Below are positions 35,154 through 52,112 of a stretch of 61,942 bases of DNA, piece after piece. Made by a program: the position numbers and the translations under genes. Source of the DNA: a bacterium (GTDB lineage: Bacteria > CLD3 > SB21); the NCBI GenBank assembly GCA_013360215.1, contig JABWCP010000022.1:1-61942 (forward strand), in the 5' to 3' direction. Under the pieces are notes generated by a model. It was not told the DNA's origin. It saw only the letters and a list, made by a program, of their open reading frames with translations, and did no database searches. The first letter of the stretch is position 1; every line of letters begins with the position of its first letter.

Positions 35154-35188
35154 AAAAAAACCCCTCCACATCCTGCAGAGGGGTTTTT
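35154..35188. terminator. Bidirectional terminator
   Basis: AAAAAAACCCCTC...GAGGGGTTTTT between convergent sdaA and the redox operon. Confidence 0.8.
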
Positions 35189-35238: not shown

Positions 35239-36414
35239 TCAGGAAACCAATTCGCGCTCAAAGAAATGTCCGGTAACCAAAGCCCAATCCTTATCTTCGA
35301 GTTGCTGCATTTCTCCGGTATATATATCACCCGGTTTGCCGTGGCCATTACCCTTTACCATCGTTTTTACTTCATTCTGATAATTCTGTAAATCTTCCTG
35401 ATAGAACTGCACCGCTGATTTTCCGATTTTGAGATGGCGAATGTCATCGTCCACGCGATCCGGATCAATAATGCAAATCCAGTTATTGTCATAAGGCGTT
35501 ACCAAAATACGGTCCGGATCTTTGACCAGTGCATGATTGATCTCTGTCACTTTACCGCTGACAGGCGACTTGAAATGAATAATGCGGTTGCCCTGCTTAA
35601 CACTAAATAGCGGTTGACCAACTTGAATATTCATTCCGCGATTTGGAAATTCGAATCCGTCAATTTTTCCTATCAGTTTTTTCGCAAAATCATCCATACC
35701 AACTTTGACATCGCCTTCGGTTTCCATACTGACCCAGCAATGATTGCGAGCGATGAACATACCGCCGGGAATCGTAAACTCTTTGGTCATAAATTGTTCG
35801 GCCCCATGCACGTGCGTGATATGCACTTTGGGCATCAATTGCTTTTGAATCCGATCTTGACGTTTGATAAGCGTTTTTCTCGTAAAATTGAGTAACTCCT
35901 CTTCCGTGAAAGGCTTCTGGATATAATCCATTGCACCAAATTTCATACATTCGACCGCCGACTCTACCGTAGCGTAGCCTGTAATGACAATAACATCCAT
36001 ATCAGGGCGCATTTCTTTGACGGATTTGACTACGTCCACACCATCCATAGCCGGCATTTTGAGATCGGTGAAAACGAAATCATAATGATGGGCTTGTACC
36101 AGTCCGAGCGCTTCCTGTCCCGTTTCGACGGTATCCACATTGTATCCGTCAATAACGAGTATTTTGCGAAAACTGTCTAAAATAACGGTTTCGTCATCCA
36201 CGCAGAGTATCCGCGCTTTGGGTGCAGGCACTTCGGCCCGCTTGAGGGTTTTTGCCTCTCGGCTGTAATCCATTCTGAGACTCACGGCAAGTGCTTCTTC
36301 CCGGAGTTTGCGCTGCTTTTCATCTTGCATTCGACGTACGATCATCCGTATCGCAATATCAAGTATGACGAAAAGAACTAAAGCAACAATGAGTAACGGC
36401 ATAGAAGCCTCCAT
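35239..36414 (-). CDS. Membrane-anchored response regulator: TM + REC + GcvH-like domain lacking lipoyl Lys
   Basis: N-terminal TM; REC ILCVDDE/FTDLKMP/ITGY/YIQKPF; H-protein fold HCWV..VKVGMDDFA..SPVSGKVTEIN..PYDNNWI. Confidence 0.85.
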   Translation of the reverse strand: MEASMPLLIVALVLFVILDIAIRMIVRRMQDEKQRKLREEALAVSLRMDYSREAKTLKRAEVPAPKARILCVDDETVILDSFRKILVIDGYNVDTVETGQEALGLVQAHHYDFVFTDLKMPAMDGVDVVKSVKEMRPDMDVIVITGYATVESAVECMKFGAMDYIQKPFTEEELLNFTRKTLIKRQDRIQKQLMPKVHITHVHGAEQFMTKEFTIPGGMFIARNHCWVSMETEGDVKVGMDDFAKKLIGKIDGFEFPNRGMNIQVGQPLFSVKQGNRIIHFKSPVSGKVTEINHALVKDPDRILVTPYDNNWICIIDPDRVDDDIRHLKIGKSAVQFYQEDLQNYQNEVKTMVKGNGHGKPGDIYTGEMQQLEDKDWALVTGHFFERELVS

Positions 36415-36450
36415 TCGTAGGTGATTGCTTTTAATGAAAATCGTATCCTT

Positions 36451-37242
36451 TTATAAACGATCCGAACTGCAGGATACCAATTTCGGCAGTTCGTATTCCA
36501 AATCCGTAGGAATGATTCGGTAAAACCATCCCTCGAAAAACGGATCTTTTTCAATTTGACTGGGTGCCTCGGTCAATTCTTCATTGACCTGAATAACCTG
36601 CCCGCTGAGCGGGCACATCACAGCATGCATCAATCCCCTCGCATCACGCATCTGTGCGCAGGAATTACCTTGATAAATATCGGACAGCATCGGCGTCAAT
36701 TCGATCGCCGTAAGGTTTTCCATTGCCTTAACAAATAAATCGGTTACACCGATTTTTGCCGTGCCGTCGCGCTCAGGATAGACCCAACTGCCGTAACCAA
36801 GACGATAATACCGTGAAGGACACGGGACGTACGGTAAAATATTCCCCGATTTATTTTCCGATGAAACGATCGTACCATAACGTAACCCGCGATACAAAGC
36901 CGATAATAGTTCGTCCGCAGTAAACGGTTTGGGTATAAAATCAATTGCACCTTCAGACAACGCATGTACGGCATTCTCGACGGTGGCGTATCCTGTGGAA
37001 ATAATTACACCCGATGTAATACCGCGTTTTTTTACTTCTGCCAAAAGTTGAAATCCGTCCATTTCGGGCATTTTGATATCACTGATGATCAGGCGATAAT
37101 CCTGTGACTCCATACGCTTTAACGCCTCGGCCGCCGATTCGGCACAGTCCACTTTCAGTCGCTCGGATGTACATGTTTTGTTGATCGCCGTCAAAACGAC
37201 GGGTTCATCATCGACAGCCAATATGTCTTTGATACTGCTCAT
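36451..37242 (-). CDS. Response regulator: REC + GcvH-like domain lacking lipoyl Lys
   Basis: REC ILAVDDEP/ISDIKMP/STGY/FIPKPF; H-protein fold GSWV..AKIGVTD..CPLSGQVIQVNEEL..P..IEKDPFFEGWF. Confidence 0.85.
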   Translation of the reverse strand: MSSIKDILAVDDEPVVLTAINKTCTSERLKVDCAESAAEALKRMESQDYRLIISDIKMPEMDGFQLLAEVKKRGITSGVIISTGYATVENAVHALSEGAIDFIPKPFTADELLSALYRGLRYGTIVSSENKSGNILPYVPCPSRYYRLGYGSWVYPERDGTAKIGVTDLFVKAMENLTAIELTPMLSDIYQGNSCAQMRDARGLMHAVMCPLSGQVIQVNEELTEAPSQIEKDPFFEGWFYRIIPTDLEYELPKLVSCSSDRL

Positions 37243-39113
37243 GATTTTACCGGTATACGTATCGTAAACGTCGTTCCCAGACCGGGAATACTTTCGACCG
37301 TTATTTTCCCGTCGTGGTTATCTATAATGCCCCAAATCACCGATAGGCCAAGCCCGGTTCCTTTTTGCCCTTTGGTAGTAAAAAACGGTTCAAAAATTCG
37401 ACTCATATCTTCGGGTGGAATTCCGATACCGTTATCGCGCACTTTGATTTCGACGAATTCACGGACACCGGCTTCATCCATGATCGGCCACTGCTGCCAA
37501 TCGCATCCGTTTCGCGTGCATCCCCTAAAGACACCTTTACCGGCGACCTCGAAACTATATGTCAACGCATTGCATTTAGGGCAACGTACGGATTCATTGA
37601 TGACGGACGTGAGGCATTGTGGGCATTGCAAACTCATTATATTTCCCGATAAAATACCATATTCGTGTTGATGGCTTCCGTAAATCGGATCAAGGTATAA
37701 AAAACCTTCCGCCCCTTCGCTTTTAGCCTTGAGGCGTATGGTCGGTAACCCGTTGATCTTAATATCAGGACTCATCAGGTTGTGATTTTTATTGCACAGT
37801 GCTTTACGAATTTGTGTTGTGCCGTAAGGCGAAAGATTGATTCGTGCAAGATGAATATGGATCGTACCGCCCGATTCGCTCATTGCGTCAGCCGCATTGA
37901 CCAAAAGGTTGATAAATACCTGCTGCATTTGATTGCTATCCACAACCACATGCGGCATATCCTCATTAAAGTTAGTTTCGACTTTGACGCGATGCAGACG
38001 CAATTGATTTTCGGTGACACTCAATGACCGGCGAATGATCTCACATATATCCGCCGCGCTTTTTTTGGGAACGGATTGCCGTGCAAAATCTAAAAGACTT
38101 TTGACGATTTCGCGGCTGCGAAGGGTTTCGCGAACGATGACTTTGAGGTCTTCCTGTATATCCGGTTGTGAAGCCGTGCGCTTCATCAAATAACTGCTGT
38201 ATGTCAAAACACCGGTGAGAGGATTATTGATCTCGTGCGCGACACCGGCGGCCAATCGTCCGAGCGAAGCCATCTTATCAGATTGGAAAAGCTGTAACCG
38301 CGCTTCCGCCATTTTTCGTGTCATGTGATTAAATGCCCGAGCCAATTGGCCTAATTCGTCGCTTCGGTTTTCAGGTAATGCATGATTGAGATTCCCGCCG
38401 GCGATTTCATGCGTCGCCGTAACCATCGTATGCACAGGGATTTCTACCCATCGGTACACAAAAATGCCGATGATACAACTGAGCGCGACAAAGGATACCA
38501 AAGCAAAAATCGTCATCTCCAAACGGCTCGACTGAACTTGTGCATCCACATCAGCTAAAGGAATCGTCACATCCAAAACACCGAGCACTTTTTGTTCGGG
38601 TTCATGCACGTGGCACGACGCTTCCCAGCACGACGCTTCGTTGTATATCGGATTGATAATACCCATAATCCGTACCGAATCCGGATGTAATCGGAAAACA
38701 CGCGTACGTTCACTGATCGTAAGACGTTCGATCGGTTTTTGATCCGAATGACACACAAAACAACTTTCCGCATTTTTATCCACCATCTTACCGATATCAT
38801 CCGGTTTGGATGAATAAACTATTTCGCCGGTTTTATTAAGCAGCCGGATGCGGTTAATACCGGGTTGTTCGCCAATGTCCCGAATCTGGCGATGAATGCG
38901 TTCACGTTGATTAAAAAGCATATCATGCCGCGTGCTGTACTTGACCGTTTCACTCAGTTGATTGGCGCGGCGTTCTACTTCGGCGAGCAGTACTTCGGTG
39001 TGCGAACGAATATTGAAATATGAAAAAACTCCGATGATGAGTATCGCCGTCACACCCACAACCAAAATGAGTCTGAATCCTATTTTATCCAGCCATGCCG
39101 GCATATTTACCAC
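37239..39113 (-). CDS. Sensor histidine kinase with periplasmic heme-c motifs, HAMP, HisKA and Cys-rich insert in HATPase
   Basis: 2 TMs; CFVCH and CWEASCH; HAMP; AAGVAHEINNPL; N-box QVFINLLVNA; insert with CPQC/CPKC/CTRNGC; DNGIGI, FEPFFTTK, GTGLGL. Confidence 0.92.
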   Translation of the reverse strand: MVNMPAWLDKIGFRLILVVGVTAILIIGVFSYFNIRSHTEVLLAEVERRANQLSETVKYSTRHDMLFNQRERIHRQIRDIGEQPGINRIRLLNKTGEIVYSSKPDDIGKMVDKNAESCFVCHSDQKPIERLTISERTRVFRLHPDSVRIMGIINPIYNEASCWEASCHVHEPEQKVLGVLDVTIPLADVDAQVQSSRLEMTIFALVSFVALSCIIGIFVYRWVEIPVHTMVTATHEIAGGNLNHALPENRSDELGQLARAFNHMTRKMAEARLQLFQSDKMASLGRLAAGVAHEINNPLTGVLTYSSYLMKRTASQPDIQEDLKVIVRETLRSREIVKSLLDFARQSVPKKSAADICEIIRRSLSVTENQLRLHRVKVETNFNEDMPHVVVDSNQMQQVFINLLVNAADAMSESGGTIHIHLARINLSPYGTTQIRKALCNKNHNLMSPDIKINGLPTIRLKAKSEGAEGFLYLDPIYGSHQHEYGILSGNIMSLQCPQCLTSVINESVRCPKCNALTYSFEVAGKGVFRGCTRNGCDWQQWPIMDEAGVREFVEIKVRDNGIGIPPEDMSRIFEPFFTTKGQKGTGLGLSVIWGIIDNHDGKITVESIPGLGTTFTIRIPVKS

Positions 39114-40246
39114 AACTTTCTCCCGGGTAAATCATTGGGATACATTTTATCATCATGACAAGGCGTGCATACAGGTTTTGCGGTATACTTATTTTTTGGA
39201 TGACAATCTTTGCACGACAATTCCAAATGATCTTCACTCAAAACCAATCCCGTGACCGCATGACGAAACGTCGTCATTGTCCACGCCGTGTGGCATGTGT
39301 TGCATTCGCGCGATAGACTTTTAAAGTTTTTGTTTGCCCCGTGACAATCCGAACAAATCAATCGTGTATGATAATTGGCCAAGGCCCAACCCGTACGCGT
39401 TCCGTGATCAAACGGCTGCAATTCTTTATTGCTATGACATTTGGTACAGTTGTCATCTTTATGACAATTAAAACAAGCGGCATGTTTTTCTTCTTCAGTT
39501 TTATGTACGACGTTTTGCACGAGCGGCTCGTTCATCGAACGTTTCTGATCATGGCACTTCACGCATGAGAGCTGTGAATGACACTGCCCGCAAGACACAC
39601 CGAATAACTGAGTATGATCTTTATGATAAAATGTAGCTACGCGCCCTTTCTCCGTATCGGTTTCATACACGATTTTCTCAGGTTCTTTGCGGGTGCGATG
39701 ACTTATGGCTAAAAGCGAATCTTTTTTATTTTTTTCACTTTGGCTTACGGCTGACTTTTTCAAATCATGACAGGAATTGCAACCCGCTTCCGCACTCCAC
39801 GTTTTATGACACGTGATGCACTGGCGATGATAAGCGGCTTGTAAAGCCGGTGTTGATTCCGGTTTATCTCGTTTGTCCTCTTTTTTTAAAGCATGGCAGG
39901 CCGCACACGATTGTACCGGGCCGGATGTATTGTAGTGATGGCAGCCGCCACACCCGCCCGACATGTCGTACATTTCGGCATGTCTTTTATGTGAAAAACG
40001 TACACCGGTGTATCGGTCACTGAGCCGATTGAGTTGAATAAATTCAGGAGCCGAATGTACGGACGCACGAATAGTGATCAGGTCTTCCCGAGGACAGTCG
40101 ATGAGGCATGGATCTTTGATTGTCGGAAATTCACACGTATGGCATGTTTTGCAAGGTAAGTTCGTTTTGTTATGCAACGGATTGCTTTTTTGTCCAAACA
40201 CCATCACAGTCCAAAACATCAGTATGAGGAAAATATTCTTTTTCAT
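39107..40246 (-). CDS. Multiheme cytochrome c (13 CxxCH), cytochrome c3-like domains
   Basis: Signal peptide; CKTCH, CGGCH, CAACH, CITCH, CNSCH, CGQCH, CVKCH, CFNCH, CTKCH, CSDCH, CNTCH, CKDCH, CTPCH; FSHKRH and FYHKDH distal-His motifs. Confidence 0.93.
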   Translation of the reverse strand: MKKNIFLILMFWTVMVFGQKSNPLHNKTNLPCKTCHTCEFPTIKDPCLIDCPREDLITIRASVHSAPEFIQLNRLSDRYTGVRFSHKRHAEMYDMSGGCGGCHHYNTSGPVQSCAACHALKKEDKRDKPESTPALQAAYHRQCITCHKTWSAEAGCNSCHDLKKSAVSQSEKNKKDSLLAISHRTRKEPEKIVYETDTEKGRVATFYHKDHTQLFGVSCGQCHSQLSCVKCHDQKRSMNEPLVQNVVHKTEEEKHAACFNCHKDDNCTKCHSNKELQPFDHGTRTGWALANYHTRLICSDCHGANKNFKSLSRECNTCHTAWTMTTFRHAVTGLVLSEDHLELSCKDCHPKNKYTAKPVCTPCHDDKMYPNDLPGRKLW

Positions 40247-41487
40247 AACGGCAACCCTTTAATCGCATATTTACGGGCCGGGCCTCCATTGGGATCGGGC
40301 TTGCTGATAACTGGAAATACCATTACACAAACACGATAAACCAATACAAGTAACGCTACAAATCCGACGGTAACCGATATTTCTCCAAATGATGGTACAT
40401 ATCGCTCTGTCGCATAGGGCGGCGTATAAGCGACGATAAAATTATTGATGCGATTGATCAGTACACCGAATATTACCAGGCCGGATGCAACGAAAAGCCA
40501 GAGCGGTGAACGGCGCACACCCGGTGAAAGAAACATGCGGAGCGGAATGATAACGCCTACGACCAACTCGATAACAAACATCATACTTTCAAGGGTCGGC
40601 TCATTGAGATACACAAATGTTTCGCGGATAAACATATCTCCGATTTTAAACGCCAGATAGATCGCTAGCAACGGGCCGACGATACGAGCAAGCCTTGAAA
40701 GCACCGCCATTTCCGGTTTCAGACCAAAAGAACGTGACGCTAACAATGATTCAAAAATAACCATCGGAAACCCCACAGATACGGCTGACAATAAAAACAA
40801 CAAAGGCAGTATCGGCGTTTGCCACAGCGGATGCATCTTAACACCGGCGATAACCATCAGAGTTCCTAATGAGGACTGATGAAGCGTAGATAACACGACG
40901 CCCATGATAATAAATACAAACATGGATTTGCTCAGCCCGCGATCCAGTAATCTCAAAAAACGATCCAGTGGTTTATTAAGCGCCCTCAAGACTCCGGGTA
41001 GTGTCACACGCCCGATAAAGCGTTCCGTCACAATGGGTAAAAACTCGATATATAGCACGCTCATATAAATCATCACGCACATACCCACTTCAAAAAGCGC
41101 GGAAGTGCCATTCCACATGATCAAAGGATGCCAGATATAATAATATCGCCCTATATCTATGCACACCCCCATCGCGACAAACGTGTATCCTAACATCGCC
41201 GTGAGCAGGGCCGGACGAATAACTGCGTGGTATTCCTCCCGATGCATGATGTGCCCTAAGGCGGCGCTGGTAAACCCTCCGGCGGCTAAAGCGACTCCGG
41301 CTGCCACATCTACGCCGATCCACAAACCCCATGGATATTGATTGTCCAGATTGGTCACTGCACCCAAACCAAAAAGAAAACGCCCTGCCAGGAATACGAT
41401 TCCATTCAGGGCGAGCAATATCAGTATCATAACACCGACTGTAAAAAACTTCTTTTCGACGGGCGCAGGTTTTTCAAATGCGTTCAT
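40243..41487 (-). CDS. NrfD/PsrC-family membrane subunit (HybB/HmcC-like)
   Basis: GLGAVTNL...PWGLWIGVDV..GVALAAGGF, DIGR, SALFEV, LHQSSLG; ~10 TMs. Confidence 0.9.
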   Translation of the reverse strand: MNAFEKPAPVEKKFFTVGVMILILLALNGIVFLAGRFLFGLGAVTNLDNQYPWGLWIGVDVAAGVALAAGGFTSAALGHIMHREEYHAVIRPALLTAMLGYTFVAMGVCIDIGRYYYIWHPLIMWNGTSALFEVGMCVMIYMSVLYIEFLPIVTERFIGRVTLPGVLRALNKPLDRFLRLLDRGLSKSMFVFIIMGVVLSTLHQSSLGTLMVIAGVKMHPLWQTPILPLLFLLSAVSVGFPMVIFESLLASRSFGLKPEMAVLSRLARIVGPLLAIYLAFKIGDMFIRETFVYLNEPTLESMMFVIELVVGVIIPLRMFLSPGVRRSPLWLFVASGLVIFGVLINRINNFIVAYTPPYATERYVPSFGEISVTVGFVALLVLVYRVCVMVFPVISKPDPNGGPARKYAIKGLPL

Positions 41488-41496
41488 ATTCTTCTC

Positions 41497-42381
41497 CTAA
41501 TCATCCGGTTCTTCCCGATGCTTCATGAGCCACATAATGCCGCCCAACAGGGCGTAAAGTGATACCGGCGGCACAAAATAGGCGAAGATACCATGCTGAA
41601 TAGATTCCGAAACGCCCGGCGCCGGATTGCGACCGAGTTTGGGAAATCCGATTTCAGCAAAATCGCGTTCGGCTAAATACAACCACGCCGTGCCTCCGAC
41701 TTCCGTTTCGCCAAAAATATGATCTTTATATTTTTCAGGATGACGGCGTATACGATCTTTTGCGATTTGTAATAATTCAGCACGTGTACCGAATATCATA
41801 GCTTCTACCGGACATTCCGTAACGCACGCCGGACGCTCTCCCTTATCGGTACGTTGTTTGCAAAAATCACATTTGATAATATCGGGACGAAACGCTTTTT
41901 CATATTCAAACGCCGGTACTTGAAAGGGACATGCTACCATACAGTATCGGCAACCGATACATTTGTCCGTATCCCACAAAACACTACCCTTTTCTTCTTT
42001 GTGAAACGCGCCGACAATACACGCAGAAACGCATGCCGGTTCATCACAGTGCATGCATTGAAATTTCACAAAAGTTTCAGTTTGTCGTTGAGAATACTGA
42101 TTGATGACAGTCAGGCGGGTTTCATCAGGGCGGCGTACTTTCTTAAATACATCCGTGCTTTGATAGTTCTCCAGCTTTTCATCGTCGTACCCGTGCGCTT
42201 TGCGGCAAGCCCATTCACAAGTCCGGCAACCGATACATACGGTAGTGTCAACCAAAACACCCCGGCGATCCGGAGAAAGCTCATTGCGCGAAGCCGCTTG
42301 TACGGGTTTACCGCTTCCTGAAGCGGCTGCACCTAGCAGCGCTGCCGCAGCGATAAACCTTCGGCGACTGTGGTTTATCAT
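41497..42381 (-). CDS. Tat-exported 4x[4Fe-4S] ferredoxin subunit (HybA/HmcB-like) with C-terminal TM
   Basis: SRRRFI Tat motif; CIGCRTCEWAC, CMHCDEPACVSAC, CIGCRYCMVACP, KCDFC..PACVTECP; GETEVGGT. Confidence 0.92.
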   Translation of the reverse strand: MINHSRRRFIAAAALLGAAASGSGKPVQAASRNELSPDRRGVLVDTTVCIGCRTCEWACRKAHGYDDEKLENYQSTDVFKKVRRPDETRLTVINQYSQRQTETFVKFQCMHCDEPACVSACIVGAFHKEEKGSVLWDTDKCIGCRYCMVACPFQVPAFEYEKAFRPDIIKCDFCKQRTDKGERPACVTECPVEAMIFGTRAELLQIAKDRIRRHPEKYKDHIFGETEVGGTAWLYLAERDFAEIGFPKLGRNPAPGVSESIQHGIFAYFVPPVSLYALLGGIMWLMKHREEPDD

Positions 42382-42700
42382 AATTTGCCTCGCAGCATGA
42401 AGAAGTAACTATTGCAATTCCAATTGTTTCAAAAAACAATTTCAACAATGCACATACAACATACGTTTGAAGGCGTTTTACTACAATGATACCGGTCAGC
42501 GATGATCAAACTTTTTCGCTTAAAAAATAACCGCATTAAATCATGTTAACACGTGACCCGTGAGATCAAATAGAGCAAACGCATTAAAAGGCATTTATAA
42601 AATTTGATTTCTGGCGCTAATTTTGAGATTTCATGATAAAAGGAAGGAAAAAATAATTCAGATTATGGAGTCTGTTGTTATAAATTAGATTGTGTGAAAT

Positions 42701-42730
42701 AAAAAACCGGTGAAATTTTACATTCACCGG
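42701..42730 (-). terminator. Terminator after DUF3857 genes
   Basis: AAAAAACCGGTGAA-ttttaca-TTCACCGG. Confidence 0.7.
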
Positions 42731-42765
42731 CTCTATAGACTCACATGGGTTGTTACTAGTTGTTG

Positions 42766-44745
42766 CTAATTATTAACTTTGAAAATAAGGTTTGGTAATT
42801 GAAGTCTTGACGATTTGCCGGCAACGCGCCAAAGATCATCAACGGTTTCTTTGGGTTGTAACGTCTTTATTAATCGCAGCGACTGTTCTGCTTTGAGTGT
42901 ACCCTTGCTAATAGCATAGTTCCCTGAAATCGAACCGAAATTATTTTGAAACTGAACATCCTGCATAGTCGATGCCAACTCCCATGTTTGAGGATATTGG
43001 ATCGTTATTTTTTTTATAAATGCTTCATCATTAAAAATTCGAATTGGATTTTTTCTTTCTTTACTGTCACTTTTAAATTTGATGCGCGAAGTCGGTGAAA
43101 AAAGCCCGCCGGTCTGAAAAATCACTTCTTCCGGTGTGACGGTAACAAGATTGTCTATGGTATATCGCAAACGAATGATAAGCGGTTTGCGATGATCCGA
43201 CAGATTTTCGATAGAAGACGAAGTGATCGTAGTGTGCCCGTCACTATAGGTCATCATTTTTTTCAAACTTTGGTCGCGTTCTTCATTATTCATACGCGCC
43301 ATGTTACGACGGACTCCATACGCTTCCGATCCGTGTAAAGTTTTCAGTTCCTCTACTTCGACTGCCCCGTCTTCAGCAATATTTAATTGATACGCTTCTT
43401 CCGTTATGTTATCCGAGCCGACCCCGTCCGGTACCTTATAAAAGCCATCATAACCCTGGTTTGTAATTTTTATAGCTTCTTGTCCTTGGTACAATTCAGG
43501 TATATAGGTAATCGGTAAGAACTCGATATATGGAAAAACGACATATGATTTTTCATTGATCACGGCTAGCACGGCGGGCGTATACATTTCTGAAGCAGAA
43601 AAATATTGTTTATCAAAATAACCATCCTGAGCGCTGTGAATAAGAAGATATTTAGCATCAATCCTGGCTTTCAAAAGCATGGCTTGTGCAAGCCCTGTGA
43701 TCAGATAAGCATTGCCTTTCTTTTTGATCAGTAATTCATCAAAATCACTCGCGCCTTGCCCGACATCCATTTGGGTCTGAAGATACGTGATGATCGAATC
43801 CAGTTTTTGTTCAGACGTTTTACACGACGCAACGACTTTATCCGTAGTGCGCCCCACATTATTTGCCAATAACTTGGAGAAAAACGACGTTCTATCAATC
43901 GCATAATTTTTATAAATATTGGCCACCTCGCTCCAACCGGATGCGCCTTTATAATTAATATTCCCCATATTGAGTTTGGTGATCATAAATGCCGCATAAT
44001 CGGCCAGTTCTTTAAAAAATGGCGAAAACGGTTCGTCATGAACAGCCGCGATATCACGCGCTGCATACATCAAAACCCGTTTTCGATTTTTGGCGTCCAA
44101 TTGTGTGGTGTATTTGAGTTTACGCGTATCGCTTATATTTTTTTGGCGAATCTCCCACCAATCCGGATACGCATAGCGAAAAGTAAGCTTTTCAACAGGC
44201 ATACTGTACTGCAATGCAACATTGTGTTGCAGCGGCGGATTGTTCAAAAGGTTAACATATTCTATTTCATACCCTTCTTCTACGATGGTACCTTTGACCA
44301 CGTCGGGATAAACAAACCGGTAGGTCTGTGAATGGTCCGAATTTTTTTCCGATTTGAGGTGCAGCATGTTAAAACGCGTGATTTTTCCGTCGGGTGAAAT
44401 CGTACGCATGAATGCGTTTTTCAATACTTGATTGGCTTCGACGTGCACCGAAAAAGTGCTCAACCTTTGATTGTCGGGATTGAGAATAACGTAACGGACT
44501 TTACGAATATAGAAAAATGACCATTCGTTGAGTCCCATCATCAAGTCCGATGCATTGTGCTCCATGGATTCGTCGATTTCAAGAAACACACCATCATACT
44601 CCGAATATTTTGAAGCATACGACGGAAGATTGATCGTATCGTTAATACTCAGTTTTAATGAGGTCGGTGCGAGGGCAATGGTCTTATTGGAGATCGAACA
44701 GGATGCCAGGGTTATCGTAAAGACCAGTGTTAGTATTATTCTCAT
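42766..44745 (-). CDS. DUF3857-like lipoprotein with degenerate transglutaminase-like domain
   Basis: Lipobox LASC; RFVYPDVVKGTIVE; transglutaminase-like core reads KKGNAYLIT (no Cys). Confidence 0.7.
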   Translation of the reverse strand: MRIILTLVFTITLASCSISNKTIALAPTSLKLSINDTINLPSYASKYSEYDGVFLEIDESMEHNASDLMMGLNEWSFFYIRKVRYVILNPDNQRLSTFSVHVEANQVLKNAFMRTISPDGKITRFNMLHLKSEKNSDHSQTYRFVYPDVVKGTIVEEGYEIEYVNLLNNPPLQHNVALQYSMPVEKLTFRYAYPDWWEIRQKNISDTRKLKYTTQLDAKNRKRVLMYAARDIAAVHDEPFSPFFKELADYAAFMITKLNMGNINYKGASGWSEVANIYKNYAIDRTSFFSKLLANNVGRTTDKVVASCKTSEQKLDSIITYLQTQMDVGQGASDFDELLIKKKGNAYLITGLAQAMLLKARIDAKYLLIHSAQDGYFDKQYFSASEMYTPAVLAVINEKSYVVFPYIEFLPITYIPELYQGQEAIKITNQGYDGFYKVPDGVGSDNITEEAYQLNIAEDGAVEVEELKTLHGSEAYGVRRNMARMNNEERDQSLKKMMTYSDGHTTITSSSIENLSDHRKPLIIRLRYTIDNLVTVTPEEVIFQTGGLFSPTSRIKFKSDSKERKNPIRIFNDEAFIKKITIQYPQTWELASTMQDVQFQNNFGSISGNYAISKGTLKAEQSLRLIKTLQPKETVDDLWRVAGKSSRLQLPNLIFKVNN

Positions 44746-46595
44746 GGGGTGTTTCCGGTTATAGTAATAAGCGACGTTTTAAGCTTCAGATATTGTTTGC
44801 AAAATTCGAGATACGACAGCCGTTCAACCCCGTCATACCACAGGGATTGCTGGACAAACTCATAGCGTGTTTCTAACATTCCGCGCGACGCATCCAATGA
44901 AGTTTGATTACTAAACCAAGCAACCTCTTTGTCGCCGAGCGCGATATCTTTATAATTCACCTTTGCATCGCCTATTTTCAATCGCAGTATCATACCGAGC
45001 AATTCAGGGTTTTTCATGTACACCGGCCACGTGTCTTTTATTCGTTCACCTGTTTGGGATGAAACGGATTGAAACGGAGCTTGCGGGATATATTTGCGCG
45101 TTGCAGTTTGAATAATAAATTCCGACAAATCCGCTTTAGCACTAAATGTCATTGTCGAGTCTGACTCGCTTTCAAAATGGAATTGATCCATGCTTATTTT
45201 ACTGAAATTGGAGTTGATCATCCGGGATAAATAATTTTCAAGCGCCTGTCCGGAGAGTTCATGCCGTGCATGACGGGCCGACGATAAATATTCATTACGG
45301 AGCTTGATACTGGCTTTCGCTGCGCGCAAACTGTCCATTTCTCCGTTTACTTCCACTTCGATGGATAATTTTCGCGGCAAAGGCGGCTCGTCGGTATAAA
45401 CCGGATTCGCCTCGTTGAGAATCAATACTCGTCCGTTGAAATCCGTCGGAGGAAGATTGCCAAATTCACAATATTTAGCCGTAGGATCAAAATAAAAACG
45501 TTTCCCGTCGGCTTCATAGACATTGATCACATGATTAAAAAACGAAGTATGGACGCCGTCAAAACGAAGTCTGGGTGTGGTCGAAACGAGCGCCATACGA
45601 ACAGGTATACCTGCAGAACGCGCCAAAAGCATCAGCAACAATGCCCGGTCTTTACAATCACCGTAGTTTAATTCGAGTACTTTTTTGGAGCGATGCGGTA
45701 TGATCGCATGAAAGGAATCCGCCACAGCGATGTATCGAATACGATTTTTGACGTGATTATGGATTGCTCTGAGTTTATCCATAGGCTCCTCTAATCCTCG
45801 CGTGATAGCCTGCGCCAGAGAGTCATGGCGATCATCAATCAAACCGTTTTGAGCGAGCTTTCCGTTGTACCACGATGTAAATGAGGCCGGTGTGTAGGGA
45901 TTGATCGGTTCGCGTTTTGCATTTTGCAGTTTGGTCAAAATTACGGCACGAATGCGTTCAAACGGGTTATGAGCCAAGGGTGTACGGTAGTTGATATTTC
46001 TAAACGTCAATGTTGTTTTTTCACTCTGACGATCGATACGGCAGTCCAGTGTATCTGTCGTATAGCGTATTTCAAAATCAACATACGTATCGCGCGGATG
46101 GTCAATCTTTATTTGTAGATATTCCACATAATCCACATTAGGCACCTCGATCAAAGGCATGTATGCCGCTTCAGTGAAAGTTTCCTGATATGAATATTGT
46201 ATGGAATCTTTGACCTTTAACGGTTTATCAAATGTTATACTGTGGATTTTGTAATTGCCGATAAACACGTCTTCCGGTTTTGCATAATAAAAACCAATTT
46301 GCGGGGCACCAAAACCTTCTTTTTTAATATACGAACCGTTCAGCTTGTTTACTTTGGCTGAAAATTCCTCGGTTACGTAAAACGTGTTGTTCTTCAACGC
46401 GCGTTCGGACAAATACCGAATTTTAGTTTTGATTTCAGATTTTAATTGATAGTTCCCCTTGTCATTTTTACTTAGCGCATAATGCATCGTACGTGAAAAC
46501 GCCATAGTATGCGAGTTGTCTTCATACTGTGCCGTCAATGGGAAAGTACAGACTACGATAATGATGAAAATCAACTTGATAATAGAAGCTAACAT
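44742..46595 (-). CDS. Secreted transglutaminase-like cysteine protein (DUF3857-type)
   Basis: Signal peptide; IRYIA, YGDCKDRA (Cys), FNHVI (His), FDPT (Asp). Confidence 0.82.
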   Translation of the reverse strand: MLASIIKLIFIIIVVCTFPLTAQYEDNSHTMAFSRTMHYALSKNDKGNYQLKSEIKTKIRYLSERALKNNTFYVTEEFSAKVNKLNGSYIKKEGFGAPQIGFYYAKPEDVFIGNYKIHSITFDKPLKVKDSIQYSYQETFTEAAYMPLIEVPNVDYVEYLQIKIDHPRDTYVDFEIRYTTDTLDCRIDRQSEKTTLTFRNINYRTPLAHNPFERIRAVILTKLQNAKREPINPYTPASFTSWYNGKLAQNGLIDDRHDSLAQAITRGLEEPMDKLRAIHNHVKNRIRYIAVADSFHAIIPHRSKKVLELNYGDCKDRALLLMLLARSAGIPVRMALVSTTPRLRFDGVHTSFFNHVINVYEADGKRFYFDPTAKYCEFGNLPPTDFNGRVLILNEANPVYTDEPPLPRKLSIEVEVNGEMDSLRAAKASIKLRNEYLSSARHARHELSGQALENYLSRMINSNFSKISMDQFHFESESDSTMTFSAKADLSEFIIQTATRKYIPQAPFQSVSSQTGERIKDTWPVYMKNPELLGMILRLKIGDAKVNYKDIALGDKEVAWFSNQTSLDASRGMLETRYEFVQQSLWYDGVERLSYLEFCKQYLKLKTSLITITGNTP

Positions 46596-46926
46596 CCTAG
46601 CATATTCCCTTTTTTTAAACCCATTTAAACGGGATAACGTTAAAACAGCATCGCGCCAAATTCAATAAAAATCAAATCTAGATACAATGCCCAACCAGTA
46701 AAAAAAGTTTGCACTTATGCGCATAAATTCTTTACATTACAGATGTTAACTCTTCATTGGATTATTATGGTAACCGGCATTAATTATACGAATGCCACGT
46801 GTTTCATCGGGATAGGATCTGACCTGTCTGCAATTAATTTGGTGTAAAGTCATCTGCACCAATGTCTTTTAATTAAAATCAACTTTGACTGTTTTATTGA
46901 ATGCGGTTCTAAATTTAGGAGGAATT

Positions 46927-49632
46927 ATGCAGTTGATCCCCAATTCGAGTCGGCGAGGCCTTATGGCTACGCTGTTTTTTTTCGCAAGTTTTGTGCTTCA
47001 AAGCAATGCATTTGCCGGCGGTGAGATTCTCCATACACCGCTAACGAGTCTTCCCGAAGGTCAACCGGTATATTTTGAAACTGCCTTTACTGTGCCGGTA
47101 GAACACGCTTACTTAAACTATCGTCGTCCGGGTCAAGCTAATTTTACCAACTTTGAAATGAGCCAAAAAGTCAATGGTAGTTTCGGCGCGTATATTCGTG
47201 AGCTCAACGGATTAAAAAACGGCGACCAAATCGAGTATTACATTTCCGCCGAAACACGCTCGGGTCAGACAATTACTTTGCCCGCTGAAAATCCGATGTA
47301 TATGCCGTTTCAAATGATCATCAGCAAACGTTCTGTGTTTCAAGAAACCGGTATTGAAGTGGTTGTTTTATCACCGGAACCCGATGAAAAGATCAATAAA
47401 AAAGACGTTGTTATAGCTATTTCTTTATTTTCAGACAATGCTATTGATGTAAAAAATCTTCGCCTCAAACTAGACGGTGACGACATTACGGCTAAAGCCG
47501 ATGTGACGCCGGAACTGATTACCTACTCCCCCAAAGACCTTGGTGTGGGTCAACACGTAGCGCGTTTGATGTATATTTCAGGTGAGAGCGAAACACAAAT
47601 ATTAACCGAATTTACATTTGAAGTGGTACTAAGCGGCGGTGAAGACATTTTAGCTTCCAAAGGTTTCCGTGCCTCTTCAGATTTGACCTCGGGGGGATCC
47701 GAAACCGCTTTTGAAGACGGAACTTTCCGTTTATCCGGACGTGCGGAACATCGTGCACAGCAGAATCTTGGCGAAACCACCGTATTTGATCGCGTGGGTG
47801 GCGATATTTCGTATGAAAAGAAGTGGTTCCAGGTAGGCGCGACGTTCGATTGGGACTCTGAAGACGATCCTAAGAAAAATCAACCCATTTCACGTTATTT
47901 GGTGACGGCCAATGTTGATAATCTAGTGATTTTAAACTACGGCGATACCTACCCCACTTTCAGCCCTGTTACGCTCAATGGAACGCGTGTACGCGGTTTT
48001 AGCGGGGGCGTTTATCTTGGCGTGTTCAATTTTGAGTACGTCACCGGTGAAGTTAACCGTAAAGTATTGAGTGATCAAAATAAAAAGAACAAAAGCAAAA
48101 TAGATTCTATTTTCCACAATACGGACACTTCTGTTACATCATACGCCGATGCTTATCAGGCTTATTTTGAAAGCAACCCCAATGGTTATTTTTCAGGCGA
48201 TTTCAAACGTAATATGACCGCCGGACGCTTCTCTGTAGGCCCCCAGTCATTCCAATTCGGAGTAAGTTTTGTAAAAACCAAAGATCAAGTTAGCTCACTC
48301 CTCATGAATCCTATAACGGCTGTGGGCTATAACGGCTTGACCCCGCAAGAAAATTTGGTTGCCGGTGCTGATTTTCGAGCAAGCATGTTCAATAAGCGTT
48401 TGAACTTTGATGCATCGGTCGCCAGCGCTATCAGTAACACCGATATTACATCCGGTTCAATTTCTCATGCCGATCTAGACTCAGCAGATATTGACCTGAC
48501 TAAAAGTCAATACGATTTAGTAAAGAAGTTTATTACGCTAAACGCTAATCTCGATCCACTAATAACTGAATTCGATAAAAACTTACTCGCATATACTGTT
48601 GGTAGTTCAATATCTGCATATAATAACAATCTGAGTGTGCGTTATCGTTTTAACGGTGCGTTTTTCCAATCGTACGGGGCATCTGTAGCTAGAGATCAAG
48701 AGTCGTTTGAGATCGTCGACCGCATGCGGTTTTGGCAAAACCGCATATTCCTTACAATCAACTATGCGACGATGAAGAATAATCTTGCCAAAACAGCGGC
48801 CAATACGCCTAAAACCAATACGCTTGGATTTAACATGTCATTTTTCTTACCTAATAAATTACCATCGGTAACATTGGGTTATCAAACTATGAGTCGTAAG
48901 AATGGTTTTGATTACGATGGATCAGCAATAAGAGAAAACACAACACAAAAATATCGTGATCAAATACGCGCCGGTGCGCGTCCTGAAGACAATACAACCA
49001 ATACATTCAGTTTTAACACGACGTACGGTTTTACGTTTAATGAACTGCGTAACTCGGCGTCGTTTAGTTTATCCAACAGCACGCGTAAAGATAACAGTAA
49101 AGATATCAATACGGCATATTCGTTCGACTCAGACACTGCCGTTACCTCTGTTATAGCCAATGAAACCATTACAGACTATCATAAAGCCGCCTCCGGATCC
49201 AAGATAAATACCATCGGCTTGAGTCTTTCGACGGACTGGAAGTTTCCATTACGTACTTCGATCGGATTTAACAATTCGAACAGCGAAACAAAATCCGTCA
49301 TTAAAACATCTGACAATAAACGGGATTCTATGACAGTCACAAATAAAACCAGTTCATTCAGTCTTAACGTCAATGCCGACTACCTCGTATTTCAAAATGA
49401 TGACGTACGTATTAATTCGACAGCCGGATACAATTTAGCAGCTGTAACCTTGCCCAACGTTCCCGATATAACTCTTAACACGATTTCTTTGGGTTCACGA
49501 ATCAATTTCTTTGAAAAAAACAATGTGACGCTGACTTACAGCATCACCTCCGGACTCAAAATTCCTACGGCTTCTGGTTCCAAATCGGTAACCAACAGCC
49601 TATTCTTAGCACGATACGAATACATTTTCTAA
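46927..49632 (+). CDS. Large outer-membrane protein: N-terminal Ig-like domains plus C-terminal beta-barrel
   Basis: GGAGGA RBS; signal ending AFA/G; ILHTP..IEYYISAE Ig-like region; amphipathic strands; terminal RYEYIF. Confidence 0.7.
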   Translation: MQLIPNSSRRGLMATLFFFASFVLQSNAFAGGEILHTPLTSLPEGQPVYFETAFTVPVEHAYLNYRRPGQANFTNFEMSQKVNGSFGAYIRELNGLKNGDQIEYYISAETRSGQTITLPAENPMYMPFQMIISKRSVFQETGIEVVVLSPEPDEKINKKDVVIAISLFSDNAIDVKNLRLKLDGDDITAKADVTPELITYSPKDLGVGQHVARLMYISGESETQILTEFTFEVVLSGGEDILASKGFRASSDLTSGGSETAFEDGTFRLSGRAEHRAQQNLGETTVFDRVGGDISYEKKWFQVGATFDWDSEDDPKKNQPISRYLVTANVDNLVILNYGDTYPTFSPVTLNGTRVRGFSGGVYLGVFNFEYVTGEVNRKVLSDQNKKNKSKIDSIFHNTDTSVTSYADAYQAYFESNPNGYFSGDFKRNMTAGRFSVGPQSFQFGVSFVKTKDQVSSLLMNPITAVGYNGLTPQENLVAGADFRASMFNKRLNFDASVASAISNTDITSGSISHADLDSADIDLTKSQYDLVKKFITLNANLDPLITEFDKNLLAYTVGSSISAYNNNLSVRYRFNGAFFQSYGASVARDQESFEIVDRMRFWQNRIFLTINYATMKNNLAKTAANTPKTNTLGFNMSFFLPNKLPSVTLGYQTMSRKNGFDYDGSAIRENTTQKYRDQIRAGARPEDNTTNTFSFNTTYGFTFNELRNSASFSLSNSTRKDNSKDINTAYSFDSDTAVTSVIANETITDYHKAASGSKINTIGLSLSTDWKFPLRTSIGFNNSNSETKSVIKTSDNKRDSMTVTNKTSSFSLNVNADYLVFQNDDVRINSTAGYNLAAVTLPNVPDITLNTISLGSRINFFEKNNVTLTYSITSGLKIPTASGSKSVTNSLFLARYEYIF

Positions 49633-49715: not shown

Positions 49716-52112
49716 ATGGCAAAAGGTGATTTTTTCAAAAACCTCCGAGCCAATACCGGTGCATTGATTTGTTTGATCATCAGTTTATTGGTATTTATTC
49801 CGGGCTTGGTTTTAAAAGTACTCCCCGATTTGAGCGATAATCTTATCGCATTTTACCTGTTAAATATCGGGCTCACTTTTGCCTCATTGCTTGCTTCCGT
49901 TATCGGTATATATCTTGCCGGTTTTCAAAATAAGACATTATCCGGTATTTTTATAACTCTACTAGCTGTTTGGCTTGGTAGTTTTCTCGTCAATGTCAAA
50001 GCCATCGAAAGTGTTGAACTAAAAACCTTGGATCAGAGATTTAGTTTTCGATACCAATACGTTGACCTAGAAAAAAGATTAACCCCTGAAGAATCTCCCA
50101 TCATCATCGTTGATGTGAGCGATCAAGCCGGTGAAGAAGTTCGTGATCGCTATCCTTGGCCGCGTACGTATTACGCCCATTTTATCCGTAATATGAAACG
50201 CGCCGGCGCTAAAGTGGTCGGAATAGATATTGTGTTTGATGCCCCGGATTATAATGGTCCCGAAAAGGATGATGATCTCGCGGCGGCTATCAAAGAATGC
50301 GGCAACGTCGTATTGGCCGGTAAAGTCATTAAAGGCGATGTAGCTTCCGGCGGCGGAAGTATCGGCACAACAGCCAAGCCGCTTCCTAAATTTCTGGATG
50401 AAGGAATCGGAAAATGGGGTTTTGTCGGTGTAACCAATGATATTGACGGTTTTTGGCGGCAATATCTGGTTGAAGAAAAAACGGGTGATGATGAACACGA
50501 GCAGGTTTTTCACTCGTTTGGCGTCGAAGTTTTACGCAAATATTATGATATCCCTGATTCTGCAAAATTCATCAACAATGAACAATTTTTTCAATTCGGC
50601 GACAAAGTTATACGCAAGTATAAACCCTACTCTTTTTTGATCAACTTCGCCGGTCCTAAAGCTACATTCCCCTATAAATCGTTCGAACTTACGGTGGATG
50701 ATGCCGCATTTGATCTCAAAGAAGGGCGCGATCTGGATTCGTTTGATGATGAAGGCGATCCCGATCTAGGGATCCCCCCCGGCCTGCTTAAATCCGGTTT
50801 CTTTAAGGACAAAATCGTTCTTCTCGGTGCGACGATGGAAGAGTTGCACGACGTGTTTTCCGTACCGATCAGTGAAGTGCGCACTTCCGATGGAAAAAAA
50901 CTAGAAACCCTGATGCCCGGAGTTGAAATCCACGCCAACGCAATTTATACCATTATCAAAGATAACTATGTTACCATACAGGCGGATTGGATTCGTGTTT
51001 TAATTGTAACGTTGAGCGCATTTGTTGTGTTTCTCTTGGTCAGTCGCCTTAATAAACCGTTACTGGCATTGCCGATTTTGTTACTGATCATTGCATCGGT
51101 TATCGCCTTAGCATTCTATTTATTTGCAAAACATAACATTCACATGCAACTCGTGACGCCGGTATTGGCGATCATGTTTACCTATGTCGGTAATGTGATC
51201 TTTCAATATCTCGGCGAGCGTAAAGAAAAAGCACAGATTCGTAATGCATTCGGTCGTTACTTGCCTGAAAAAGTAGTTGCGCAGCTTGTCGAGAATCCCG
51301 GTTTGCTCAAGCTCGGCGGTGAAGAACGTGTTCTTTCCATTCTATTCTCCGACGTGGCGGGTTTTACCACGATTTCCGAAAAATTGACACCGGTCGAGTT
51401 GGTACACTTGCTTAATGAATACCTGACGGCAATGACCAATATTATTTCCAAATACGACGGCATCATTGATAAATATGAAGGCGATGCGATCATGGCGGAG
51501 TTTGGCGCACCTTTGCAAGACGATGAACACGCCGCCAAAGCATGTTATGCGGCGTTAGAAATGCAGGAGAAACTCGTCGAAATGCGCGTCAAATGGAAAC
51601 GTGAAGGCCGCCCTGAACTTAAAGCGCGTGCCGGCATCAATTCCGGTAACGTCGTACTCGGTAACATGGGTTCCGAATCCGTTTTCGATTATACCGTTAT
51701 GGGTGATAATGTGAACCTCGCTTCCCGTCTCGAAGGCGCCAATAAAGAGTACGGCACATATATTATGATCAGCGAAATGACGCGCGAATTTGTCAAAGAA
51801 CAAGTCATCACCCGCGAACTTGATATTCTACGCGTCAAAGGTAAAGCCAAAGGCGTGAAAGTATTTGAGGTTATCGCCCGCACCTCAACGGGTATTACGG
51901 CGAATATGAAAAAAACTATCGAAAACTATAATAAAGGCCTCGAATTATATCGTCAACAGCGTTGGGACGAAGCTATGGTGCTTTTCAAAACGGCACTCAC
52001 TACCAATCCGGACGACGGTCCTTCGCAGACCTATATCGAACGCTGTGAAGAGTTCAAACTCAATCCGCCGCCGGAAAATTGGGACGGTATTTTTGAAATG
52101 AAGACGAAATAA
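49716..52112 (+). CDS. CHASE2-domain class III adenylate cyclase with C-terminal TPR-like tail
   Basis: PWPR..GAKVVGIDIVF..MPGVEIHAN (CHASE2); 3 TMs; FSDVAGFT, DKYEGDA, DYTVMGDNVNLASRLE (Lys/Asp, ATP-specific). Confidence 0.94.
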   Translation: MAKGDFFKNLRANTGALICLIISLLVFIPGLVLKVLPDLSDNLIAFYLLNIGLTFASLLASVIGIYLAGFQNKTLSGIFITLLAVWLGSFLVNVKAIESVELKTLDQRFSFRYQYVDLEKRLTPEESPIIIVDVSDQAGEEVRDRYPWPRTYYAHFIRNMKRAGAKVVGIDIVFDAPDYNGPEKDDDLAAAIKECGNVVLAGKVIKGDVASGGGSIGTTAKPLPKFLDEGIGKWGFVGVTNDIDGFWRQYLVEEKTGDDEHEQVFHSFGVEVLRKYYDIPDSAKFINNEQFFQFGDKVIRKYKPYSFLINFAGPKATFPYKSFELTVDDAAFDLKEGRDLDSFDDEGDPDLGIPPGLLKSGFFKDKIVLLGATMEELHDVFSVPISEVRTSDGKKLETLMPGVEIHANAIYTIIKDNYVTIQADWIRVLIVTLSAFVVFLLVSRLNKPLLALPILLLIIASVIALAFYLFAKHNIHMQLVTPVLAIMFTYVGNVIFQYLGERKEKAQIRNAFGRYLPEKVVAQLVENPGLLKLGGEERVLSILFSDVAGFTTISEKLTPVELVHLLNEYLTAMTNIISKYDGIIDKYEGDAIMAEFGAPLQDDEHAAKACYAALEMQEKLVEMRVKWKREGRPELKARAGINSGNVVLGNMGSESVFDYTVMGDNVNLASRLEGANKEYGTYIMISEMTREFVKEQVITRELDILRVKGKAKGVKVFEVIARTSTGITANMKKTIENYNKGLELYRQQRWDEAMVLFKTALTTNPDDGPSQTYIERCEEFKLNPPPENWDGIFEMKTK

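Follow-up and report, generated by a model that had tools for sequence, protein, structure and literature searches.

A quinol:cytochrome module without a catalytic subunit is encoded with a haem-motif sensor kinase and two response regulators that carry GcvH-fold domains

NrfD-family quinol:cytochrome modules are usually thought to be controlled via gene expression, and the build of an iron-sulfur (FeS) protein, an NrfD subunit and a cytochrome is shared by the Cbc complexes of Geobacter. The available text of one source counts NhcABCD among the NrfD complexes (PMC8076601). Another, as far as its accessible text goes, describes a three- to four-gene module that comprises a tail-anchored FeS protein exported by twin-arginine translocation (Tat), a HybB-like quinol oxidase and a c-type cytochrome, and whose flanks show no conserved pattern (10.1101/2023.11.02.564894). 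In D. vulgaris the hmc operon is followed by genes for a stand-alone receiver, Rrf1, and for Rrf2, both termed regulators of hmc expression in the accessible portion of the literature. Periplasmic haem-c domains with one CxxCH are described, in partly available sources, for the Geobacter PAS sensors GSU0582 and GSU0935 and for Cache_haem receptors. Here we analyse an operon of six genes that encodes a redox module of this kind together with a haem-motif sensor histidine kinase and two response regulators, named RR1 and RR2, in which a receiver (REC) domain is fused to a domain with the fold of GcvH, the H-protein. The operon lies on contig JABWCP010000022.1 of assembly GCA_013360215.1 (GTDB lineage Bacteria; CLD3; SB21), of which positions 1 to 61,942, called the window below, were analysed.

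What is new at this locus is the conserved coupling of the redox module to a predicted dihaem kinase and to response regulators with lysine-less GcvH-fold outputs. An earlier note, made from the letters of this DNA, had proposed an undescribed system, and the proposal stands for one half of it. The redox half is of a known kind, because Hmc and Nhc complexes and a published three-gene module already exist, and a redox module free of a catalytic subunit is therefore not novel; for the signalling half, in contrast, no description of a REC-GcvH regulator was found in the open full-text literature, subscription journals and supplements lying outside that search. The physical outline given by the earlier note was accurate throughout. 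Its six co-oriented genes coincide exactly with minus-strand open reading frames (ORFs; Table 1), the coordinates of which yield the same overlaps (40243-40246, 4 nt; 39107-39113, 7 nt; 37239-37242, 4 nt) and the same gaps of 9 and 36 nt. It had also placed a terminator beyond the last gene, where an A run, a 16-bp GC-rich stem and a T run follow one another; the 104-nt spacer that holds this hairpin (about 35154-35188) folds at -33.8 kcal/mol (z -3.26), and 0 of 200 shuffled versions were as stable. A simple terminator scan did not list the hairpin among its sites. Because terminator-like hairpins bound both ends, the six genes look like one transcription unit.

Table 1. Positions of the operon, its parts and boundaries in the window, and of features in other loci (locus label before the colon)
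Feature	Position	Strand	Description
FeS protein	41497..42381	-	Tat-exported, C-tail-anchored 4x[4Fe-4S], HmcB/HybA-like, 294 aa
NrfD-family quinone-interacting membrane subunit	40243..41487	-	HybB/HmcC-like, 414 aa
Periplasmic 13-haem c-type cytochrome	39107..40246	-	HmcA/c3 family, 379 aa
Sensor histidine kinase	37239..39113	-	transmembrane helix, periplasmic domain, transmembrane helix, HAMP, HisKA, split HATPase_c; 624 aa
Kinase periplasmic sensor domain	38514..39011	-	residues ~35-200, two haem-c motifs
Kinase Cys/His-rich insert	37464..37835	-	~125 aa between N box and G1 box of the ATPase domain
RR1	36451..37242	-	soluble REC + lysine-less GcvH-fold domain, 263 aa
RR2	35239..36414	-	N-terminal transmembrane helix, REC, lysine-less GcvH-fold domain, helical C-extension; 391 aa
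Two-way intrinsic terminator	35154..35188		common to the operon and the convergent serine dehydratase gene
Upstream intergenic region	42382..42765	-	terminator-like site of the preceding gene (42734-42703) and presumed promoter region
Second, divergent cluster	L044:1-4207	-	annotated in L044
HEAT protein	L168:9479-12646
HEAT protein	L169:5291-8593
HEAT protein	L173:2-3190
HEAT protein	L174:5763-8948

The redox proteins resemble subunits of hydrogenase-2 and of Hmc. Translation of the FeS gene shows a twin-arginine signal (SRRRF), four groups of Cys, 16 in all, and a hydrophobic helix at the C-terminus; the protein matches Pfam Fer4_11 (E 7e-20), is 35% identical to E. coli HybA over the full length, and scores 321.3 bits against the NCBIfam model for HmcB (cut-off 420) and 256.6 bits against that for HybA (cut-off 263), both below the cut-off. 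The membrane subunit matches Pfam NrfD (E 1.2e-20; 74.8 bits against a gathering score of 25.8) and is 33% identical to E. coli HybB, again over the full length, with NCBIfam scores of 349.8 bits for HybB (cut-off 450) and 277.5 bits for HmcC (cut-off 550) that are likewise below the equivalog cut-offs. According to the available text of one study, residues R89, Y99, D109, S129, E148, H184 and R329 of HybB make up its quinone site, proton path and gate (PMC8076601). They align with R91, Y101, D111, S129, E148, H203 and R346 of the window's NrfD subunit, all invariant in 25 sequences: the quinone-site Asp and Ser, the proton-path Arg, Tyr, Glu and His and the gate Arg are all kept. Relative to HybB, the subunit has an additional cytoplasmic loop of 19 residues. 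CxxCH motifs number 13 in the cytochrome and in 30 of 31 orthologues, the remaining one having 12. The cytochrome matches Pfam Cytochrom_CIII (1e-15) and Cytochrome_C7 (4.3e-14), and its best solved relatives are the 16-haem HmcA chains 1h29, 1z1n and 2e84 (E 1.4e-12 to 9e-9, over one domain); against the HmcA model it scores 38.7 bits (cut-off 400) and against the nine-haem NhcA model 22.9 bits (cut-off 640). As the earlier note had it, no catalytic subunit is encoded with these proteins, and none was found within the window.

The kinase has the Pfam domains HAMP, HisKA and HATPase_c, with a core that NCBIfam places closest to NtrB/ZraS/AtoS-type kinases, and neither H293 nor the residues of the N, G1 and G2 boxes vary among 24 sequences. 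Its periplasmic part, between two membrane helices, contains a CxxCH and a Cx4CH motif, and Cx4CH is known as a haem motif in c3 cytochromes. The residues concerned (C118xxC121H122, C162x4C167H168 and, in addition, H170) are kept in 40/40 sequences. The sensor domain is modelled as helix plus beta-sheet, PAS/Cache-like, at a predicted local distance difference test (pLDDT) score of ~60-85, the whole kinase reaching a pLDDT of 75 and a predicted template modelling score of 0.42. Searched against PDB sequences the domain gave no match, and the window's genome holds no paralogue of it. From the motifs, the kinase is predicted to carry two c-type haems in this periplasmic, putatively PAS/Cache-like domain. 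Further along, the ATPase domain is split by a Cys/His-rich insert that includes a CxxC...CxxC pair, and in which C440, H444, C497, C500, C511, C514 and C532 are kept in 40/40 sequences and C537 in 72%. The model of the insert is beta-rich (pLDDT ~80-88); searches gave no significant PDB sequence match and no usable Atlas match. The insert is missing from the kinases of L167, L177 and L080 (in genomes G137 and G292 and a Rhodothermales-labelled locus). Because all three of these kinases are still paired with REC-GcvH, the insert is not needed for that pairing.

Both regulators match Pfam Response_reg and GCV_H, the latter above the cut-off (E 6.5e-17 and 2.3e-18), and the absence of a DNA-binding domain that the earlier note had reported is confirmed, with no such Pfam family at E<=0.01. 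In the AlphaFold2 model of RR1 (pLDDT 90.8) a receiver domain is followed by a C-terminal domain whose top Foldseek matches are H-proteins (template modelling scores 0.82-0.86); superposed on the E. coli H-protein 3a7a_B, this half gives a score of 0.86 and a root-mean-square deviation of 1.6 Å. The C-terminal half of RR2 is homologous to P0125, a REC-less transmembrane protein treated below (hhalign 99%, E 1.9e-18), and in an Atlas search it scored 0.81-0.85 to GCV_H clusters, below the tool's threshold for more than a lead. When both are aligned with the genome's own GcvH, a canonical 126-aa gcvH product and the only other GCV_H protein encoded there, the lipoyl Lys falls opposite Arg in RR1, Asn in RR2 and Asp in P0125; lipoylation of these domains is therefore unlikely. 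The receiver residues are conserved, D11, D12, D55, T83 and K105 being invariant in the orthologue alignment of RR1 and D73, D74, D117, T145 and K167 in 25 sequences of RR2, in which F15, D19 and R23 of the membrane helix are invariant as well. The two-component catalytic residues of kinase and receivers are thus intact, and competence for phosphotransfer is predicted from them. A Cys/His metal site in RR1 was considered and rejected: Cys141, Cys195, His206 and the C-terminal Cys are near-invariant in close orthologues, but they are not conserved in the 46-sequence family alignment. The lysine-less GcvH-fold output is carried by at least ~100 clusters at 50% identity.

The window's phylum was sampled by 20 genomes and its family by 14 others. 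The regulator pair is present in 12 of those 14 and in 0/5 genomes of the phylum's two other families; the two family members without the pair, 100% and 91% complete, come from a single genus. Gene order in the loci of the 12 genomes is the same as far as contigs reach (10 complete, 2 cut). A scan of one genome per species gave 42 loci with a full-length RR1 relative, these being the best matches to RR1, chosen by similarity; most are labelled Ignavibacteria and a few bear other labels. The conserved co-occurrence anticipated by the earlier note is found in the related loci, the complete six-gene operon in the window's order being present in 30/55. A further locus (L081) has that order in frameshifted pieces, and 13 are cut by a contig end. 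Six loci show a variant, annotated in L055, that runs TM-REC-GcvH (the membrane-anchored type), small c7-type cytochrome, FeS protein, NrfD, kinase and REC-GcvH, with a further TM-REC-GcvH in three of the six. Two are rearranged with the FeS-NrfD pair retained, and three, two of them cut, hold kinase and RR1 only. None of the annotated loci has a hydrogenase, a formate dehydrogenase or a DNA-binding regulator within the cluster. In L030 (13194-16001), and also in L029, L032 and L033, all of one genus, the operon is closely followed on its downstream side by a paralogous kinase of the same sensor type that has no insert; in L030, the only one of the four that was annotated, a sigma-54 NtrC-type regulator comes next. 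Two of the metagenome-assembled loci that have the operon bear the labels Melioribacter roseus (L058) and Ignavibacterium sp. (L079). The Melioribacter and Ignavibacterium groups include cultured members. A multi-omics paper on M. roseus does not mention NrfD, HybA or Hmc (PMC5492636).

Beyond the related loci, 401 genomes (381 of them out of phylum) were searched with a profile built from 46 diverse REC-GcvH proteins, and ~17 kb was fetched around each match, less at contig ends. Among the matches listed, 14/381 out-of-phylum genomes match across both domains; in two further genomes with long profile matches Pfam found no GCV_H. The RR2 type was seen, again among the matches listed, in three of these genomes (G137, G292 and G241), beside FeS and NrfD genes in 3/3, and wherever the contig extended far enough the anchored type adjoined an FeS-NrfD pair. 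In these three unrelated genomes the cluster is rearranged relative to the window's. G137 and G292, the two in which the NrfD ORF was scanned, encode an NrfD joined to a c7-type cytochrome domain, together with a kinase whose sensor region is of the same type as the window's. The fusion, with the multihaem c7-type domain at the C-terminus of NrfD, lies at L167:10205-11749 and L177:5652-7274.

A maximum-likelihood tree of 41 domain sequences separates the RR1 type by a branch (94/94) and groups the RR2 type with the REC-less form (96/87), the latter nested inside (90/86). The GcvH-fold outputs thus fall into two subfamilies, one soluble (RR1) and one membrane-anchored (RR2). The membrane helix of the anchored type has an Asp and, 4-5 residues on, an Arg or Lys in 25/25 close RR2 sequences, in six of the seven RR2-type N-termini read (the window's included) and in 6/6 REC-less forms. 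Tabulating the neighbours of REC-GcvH fusions, which the earlier note had proposed as a check, accordingly gave a divided result: the anchored subfamily tracks FeS-NrfD, whereas the soluble one occurs with other kinases and no NrfD. The treatment of the two regulators as equivalent outputs had to be given up, as anchored and soluble proteins keep different genomic company. The kinase beside the soluble type contains PAS in the annotated locus L034, and elsewhere such kinases resemble the window's only in the kinase core; other neighbours vary and include Ser/Thr kinases, a glycyl-radical enzyme, aldehyde dehydrogenases and methylmalonyl-CoA mutase. In four distant loci a 1050-1100-aa HEAT protein, with WD40 repeats in 2/4, is encoded directly after the soluble REC-GcvH gene (Table 1) and is possibly a conserved partner of that subfamily. 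In genome G316 a receiver is fused to a thioredoxin-like [2Fe-2S] (NuoE-like) domain (L180:7353-8213, minus strand) beside a NuoF-like protein of 628 aa; this is another receiver with a redox-protein-fold output.

Six Ignavibacteria loci (L042, L044, L046, L047, L049 and L053) carry a second, divergent cluster upstream of the operon, which is absent from the window's genome. It encodes P0125, in which a transmembrane helix, a GcvH fold and an RR2-type C-extension are combined with no receiver, along with an FeS protein without a Tat signal (P0126), a 462-aa NrfD, a Cys-rich protein and a kinase with a related sensor region. The Cys-rich protein, P0127 (246 aa, no Pfam family), was tested as GcvH-like and gave a weak match (hhalign probability 12.9%).

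We read the operon as a probable Hmc/Nhc-type menaquinol:periplasmic-cytochrome oxidoreductase, without a catalytic subunit and with a two-component system of its own. The HybB-type NrfD subunit would hold the quinone site and the proton path, and the kinase would sense in what redox or ligand state the periplasmic haem pool is, which the module supplies or depletes. From the kinase, phosphate would then pass to the two receivers, the GcvH-fold outputs of which are predicted to be neither lipoylatable nor DNA-binding. The phosphorylation state of the anchored RR2 would tune electron or proton flow post-translationally, and RR1, a member of a wider family, may serve either as a phosphate sink or as a second output. 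At the centre of this scheme RR2 is read as a phosphorylation-controlled accessory subunit of the quinol:cytochrome module that would act by contact. We read it so because of the charged pair in its helix, the occurrence of a REC-less paralogue in an FeS-NrfD cluster, and a co-occurrence that survives rearrangement and gene fusion, and we favour this reading tentatively, with a confidence that stops a little short of even. A narrower version, in which RR2 docks on NrfD/FeS through the helix Asp and thereby gates flow, and in which REC-GcvH proteins are a new kind of protein-contact response regulator, is possible but doubtful. If the scheme is true, a dedicated kinase and an anchored receiver subunit would provide fast protein-level control of electron flow, and the lysine-less GcvH fold would be a sizeable class of response-regulator output, undescribed as far as the literature search reaches.

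Several observations weigh against RR2 as an accessory subunit. The evidence that points to its contact with NrfD/FeS is of one sort, co-occurrence, and the loci that make up much of this evidence were chosen as best RR1 matches and are therefore kin, not independent samples. The remaining 11/14 out-of-phylum genomes, among the matches listed, have the soluble type only, with no NrfD within the fetched stretch; the soluble type thus occurs without NrfD, and the GcvH-fold output is therefore not tied to the redox module in general. One of the seven RR2-type helices has Asn replacing the Asp. The extra cytoplasmic loop of NrfD was considered as a docking site for RR2 and rejected, being absent from four NrfDs of other clusters with an RR2-type or transmembrane GcvH protein. 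Finally, Rrf1 and Rrf2 at hmc offer a precedent for an indirect transcriptional role of receivers that do not bind DNA.

That precedent leads to the alternative that survives best, namely indirect autoregulation. Here the receivers would bind or release a transcription or sigma factor and so control the operon or other respiratory genes, like Rrf1/Rrf2, of which Rrf1, in the accessible literature on this regulator pair, is a CheY-like single-domain receiver. The affinity of the kinase core for the NtrB/ZraS/AtoS type agrees with this, as do the occurrence of soluble REC-GcvH proteins in many unrelated contexts and the downstream paralogous kinase in four genomes of one genus, with the sigma-54 NtrC-type regulator after it in L030. 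However, no transcription factor gene is conserved within or adjoining the cluster in the annotated loci, the window's genome has no paralogue of the sensor domain, and a purely transcriptional switch would hardly account for an anchoring helix in which a buried Asp is conserved, or for the REC-less paralogue in an FeS-NrfD cluster. On balance we consider indirect autoregulation unlikely, if still a serious competitor.

A second alternative takes the FeS-NrfD-cytochrome trio as the membrane anchor of a catalytic enzyme encoded elsewhere, with the two-component system sensing the substrate of that enzyme. HybA/HybB and NrfC/NrfD normally serve a catalytic partner, according to the available text of one source (PMC8076601), and a putative nitrite reductase pair is among several further multihaem cytochromes that the genome encodes. 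Yet the [NiFe] hydrogenase large subunit (PF00374) has no match in the whole genome, rated 100% complete; the three other NrfD genes of the genome each lie beside a molybdopterin subunit, so that any molybdopterin enzyme close to an NrfD gene has a copy to itself; and in none of the annotated loci is a catalytic gene conserved next to the cluster. Moreover, stand-alone modules of FeS protein, HybB-like protein and cytochrome c are known, as far as the accessible text of the report goes (10.1101/2023.11.02.564894). An anchor role therefore appears improbable to us. The multihaem ORFs themselves number at least twelve with >=3 CxxCH besides the operon's cytochrome, in clusters that include 20, 13, 12, 10 and 9 motifs, and they could be periplasmic or extracellular donors or acceptors for the 13-haem cytochrome. 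Three such clusters lie on contigs C19 (19133-23245; ORFs with 10, 20 and 9 CxxCH), C32 (218541-222320; 6 and 13) and C36 (79544-83727; 5 and 12).

It could also be that the neighbourhood is meaningless and that the two-component system, though transcribed along with the redox genes, has an unrelated target, for example motility. CheY and CheA follow the cluster in L177, and soluble REC-GcvH genes elsewhere have no constant neighbour. Against this, translationally coupled overlaps join cytochrome, kinase and RR1, and the linkage persists through altered gene order, a different type of cytochrome and the fusion of NrfD to a cytochrome in distant genomes, which makes a chance association very improbable. 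Lipoate-binding GcvH-like carriers occur in sulfur-oxidising Hdr-like systems. The least credible alternative makes the GcvH-fold domains of the operon carriers of a covalent group (lipoyl-like, sulfur or acyl), and thus substrates for electrons or sulfur and not regulators, which their true GcvH fold, the near-invariant Cys and His residues of RR1 in close orthologues and the lack of a Tat signal on related FeS proteins (P0126 and that of L167), which could in principle face the cytoplasm, would favour, but Arg, Asn or Asp stands where the lipoyl Lys would be, conservation of the RR1 Cys does not extend to the wider 46-sequence family, the cluster has no lipoate or sulfur-transfer genes as neighbours, and the operon's own FeS protein has a clear Tat signal and is therefore periplasmic, whereas the receivers must be cytoplasmic.

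The operon's neighbours in the window are unrelated housekeeping and signalling genes. Directly upstream is a pair of DUF3857-like and transglutaminase-like genes (42766-46595), with a terminator-like hairpin between the pair and the operon. Farther away, an ORF of 915 aa (46885-49632), to which Pfam assigns no family at E<=1e-4, adjoins a CHASE2-adenylate cyclase-TPR protein (49716-52112). In the intergenic region upstream of the operon (42382-42765) no sigma-54 -24/-12 match was seen by eye, and a sigma-70 promoter scan upstream of the operon did no better than on shuffled sequence. The operon stretch occurs in activated-sludge metagenomes. Short RNA-library contigs from two studies, at 95-100% identity, lie on parts of the RR2, kinase, NrfD and FeS genes; they are a weak hint of transcription of the operon and may be DNA carry-over.

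Set beside described systems, the operon's redox half shares most with its relatives. Like Hmc and Nhc of sulfate reducers, it combines a periplasmic multihaem c3-type cytochrome with a 4x[4Fe-4S] protein and an NrfD-family subunit and has no catalytic subunit, and HmcB and HmcC are among the best NCBIfam matches of its FeS and NrfD proteins. It differs from them in that its NCBIfam scores are all below equivalog cut-offs, in its 13 haems as opposed to 16 (Hmc) or 9 (Nhc), in the absence of genes for HmcD, HmcE and HmcF (small membrane protein, cytochrome b and cytoplasmic FeS protein), and in a host with no sign of sulfate reduction, as far as examined. With the published three-gene module, as given in the accessible text (10.1101/2023.11.02.564894), it has the same three parts and predicted topology in common, the gene for the Tat-exported, C-tail-anchored FeS protein standing directly upstream of the HybB-like gene. 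Unlike the flanks of that module in the same text, the flanking kinase and REC-GcvH genes of the window are conserved. Compared with E. coli hydrogenase-2, the quinone-site and proton-path residues of HybB are kept, whereas neither operon nor genome has a hydrogenase and the NrfD subunit bears the extra loop of 19 residues.

The signalling half departs further from what is described. Like the Geobacter PAS and Cache_haem sensors, as they appear in partly available sources, the kinase is a transmembrane signalling protein with a CxxCH in its periplasmic part, where a model of moderate confidence suggests a PAS/Cache-like fold. It has two motifs (CxxCH and Cx4CH) where those sensors have one, and its output is a kinase with an unusual Cys-rich insert. 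The RR1 domain shares the fold of GcvH, but it is fused to a receiver, lacks the lipoyl lysine and has no gcvT/gcvP neighbours. The hmc operon, too, is trailed by a receiver without a DNA-binding domain, Rrf1, in the portions of the literature accessible to us. Rrf1 was considered as a possible REC-GcvH protein, which is not supported, as the same portions treat it as a single-domain receiver of the CheY kind. The regulators linked to the module in the window are a predicted dihaem kinase and REC-GcvH proteins, not Rrf1 and Rrf2; as a precedent for linking regulators to a module of this type, rrf1/rrf2 of hmc come closest.

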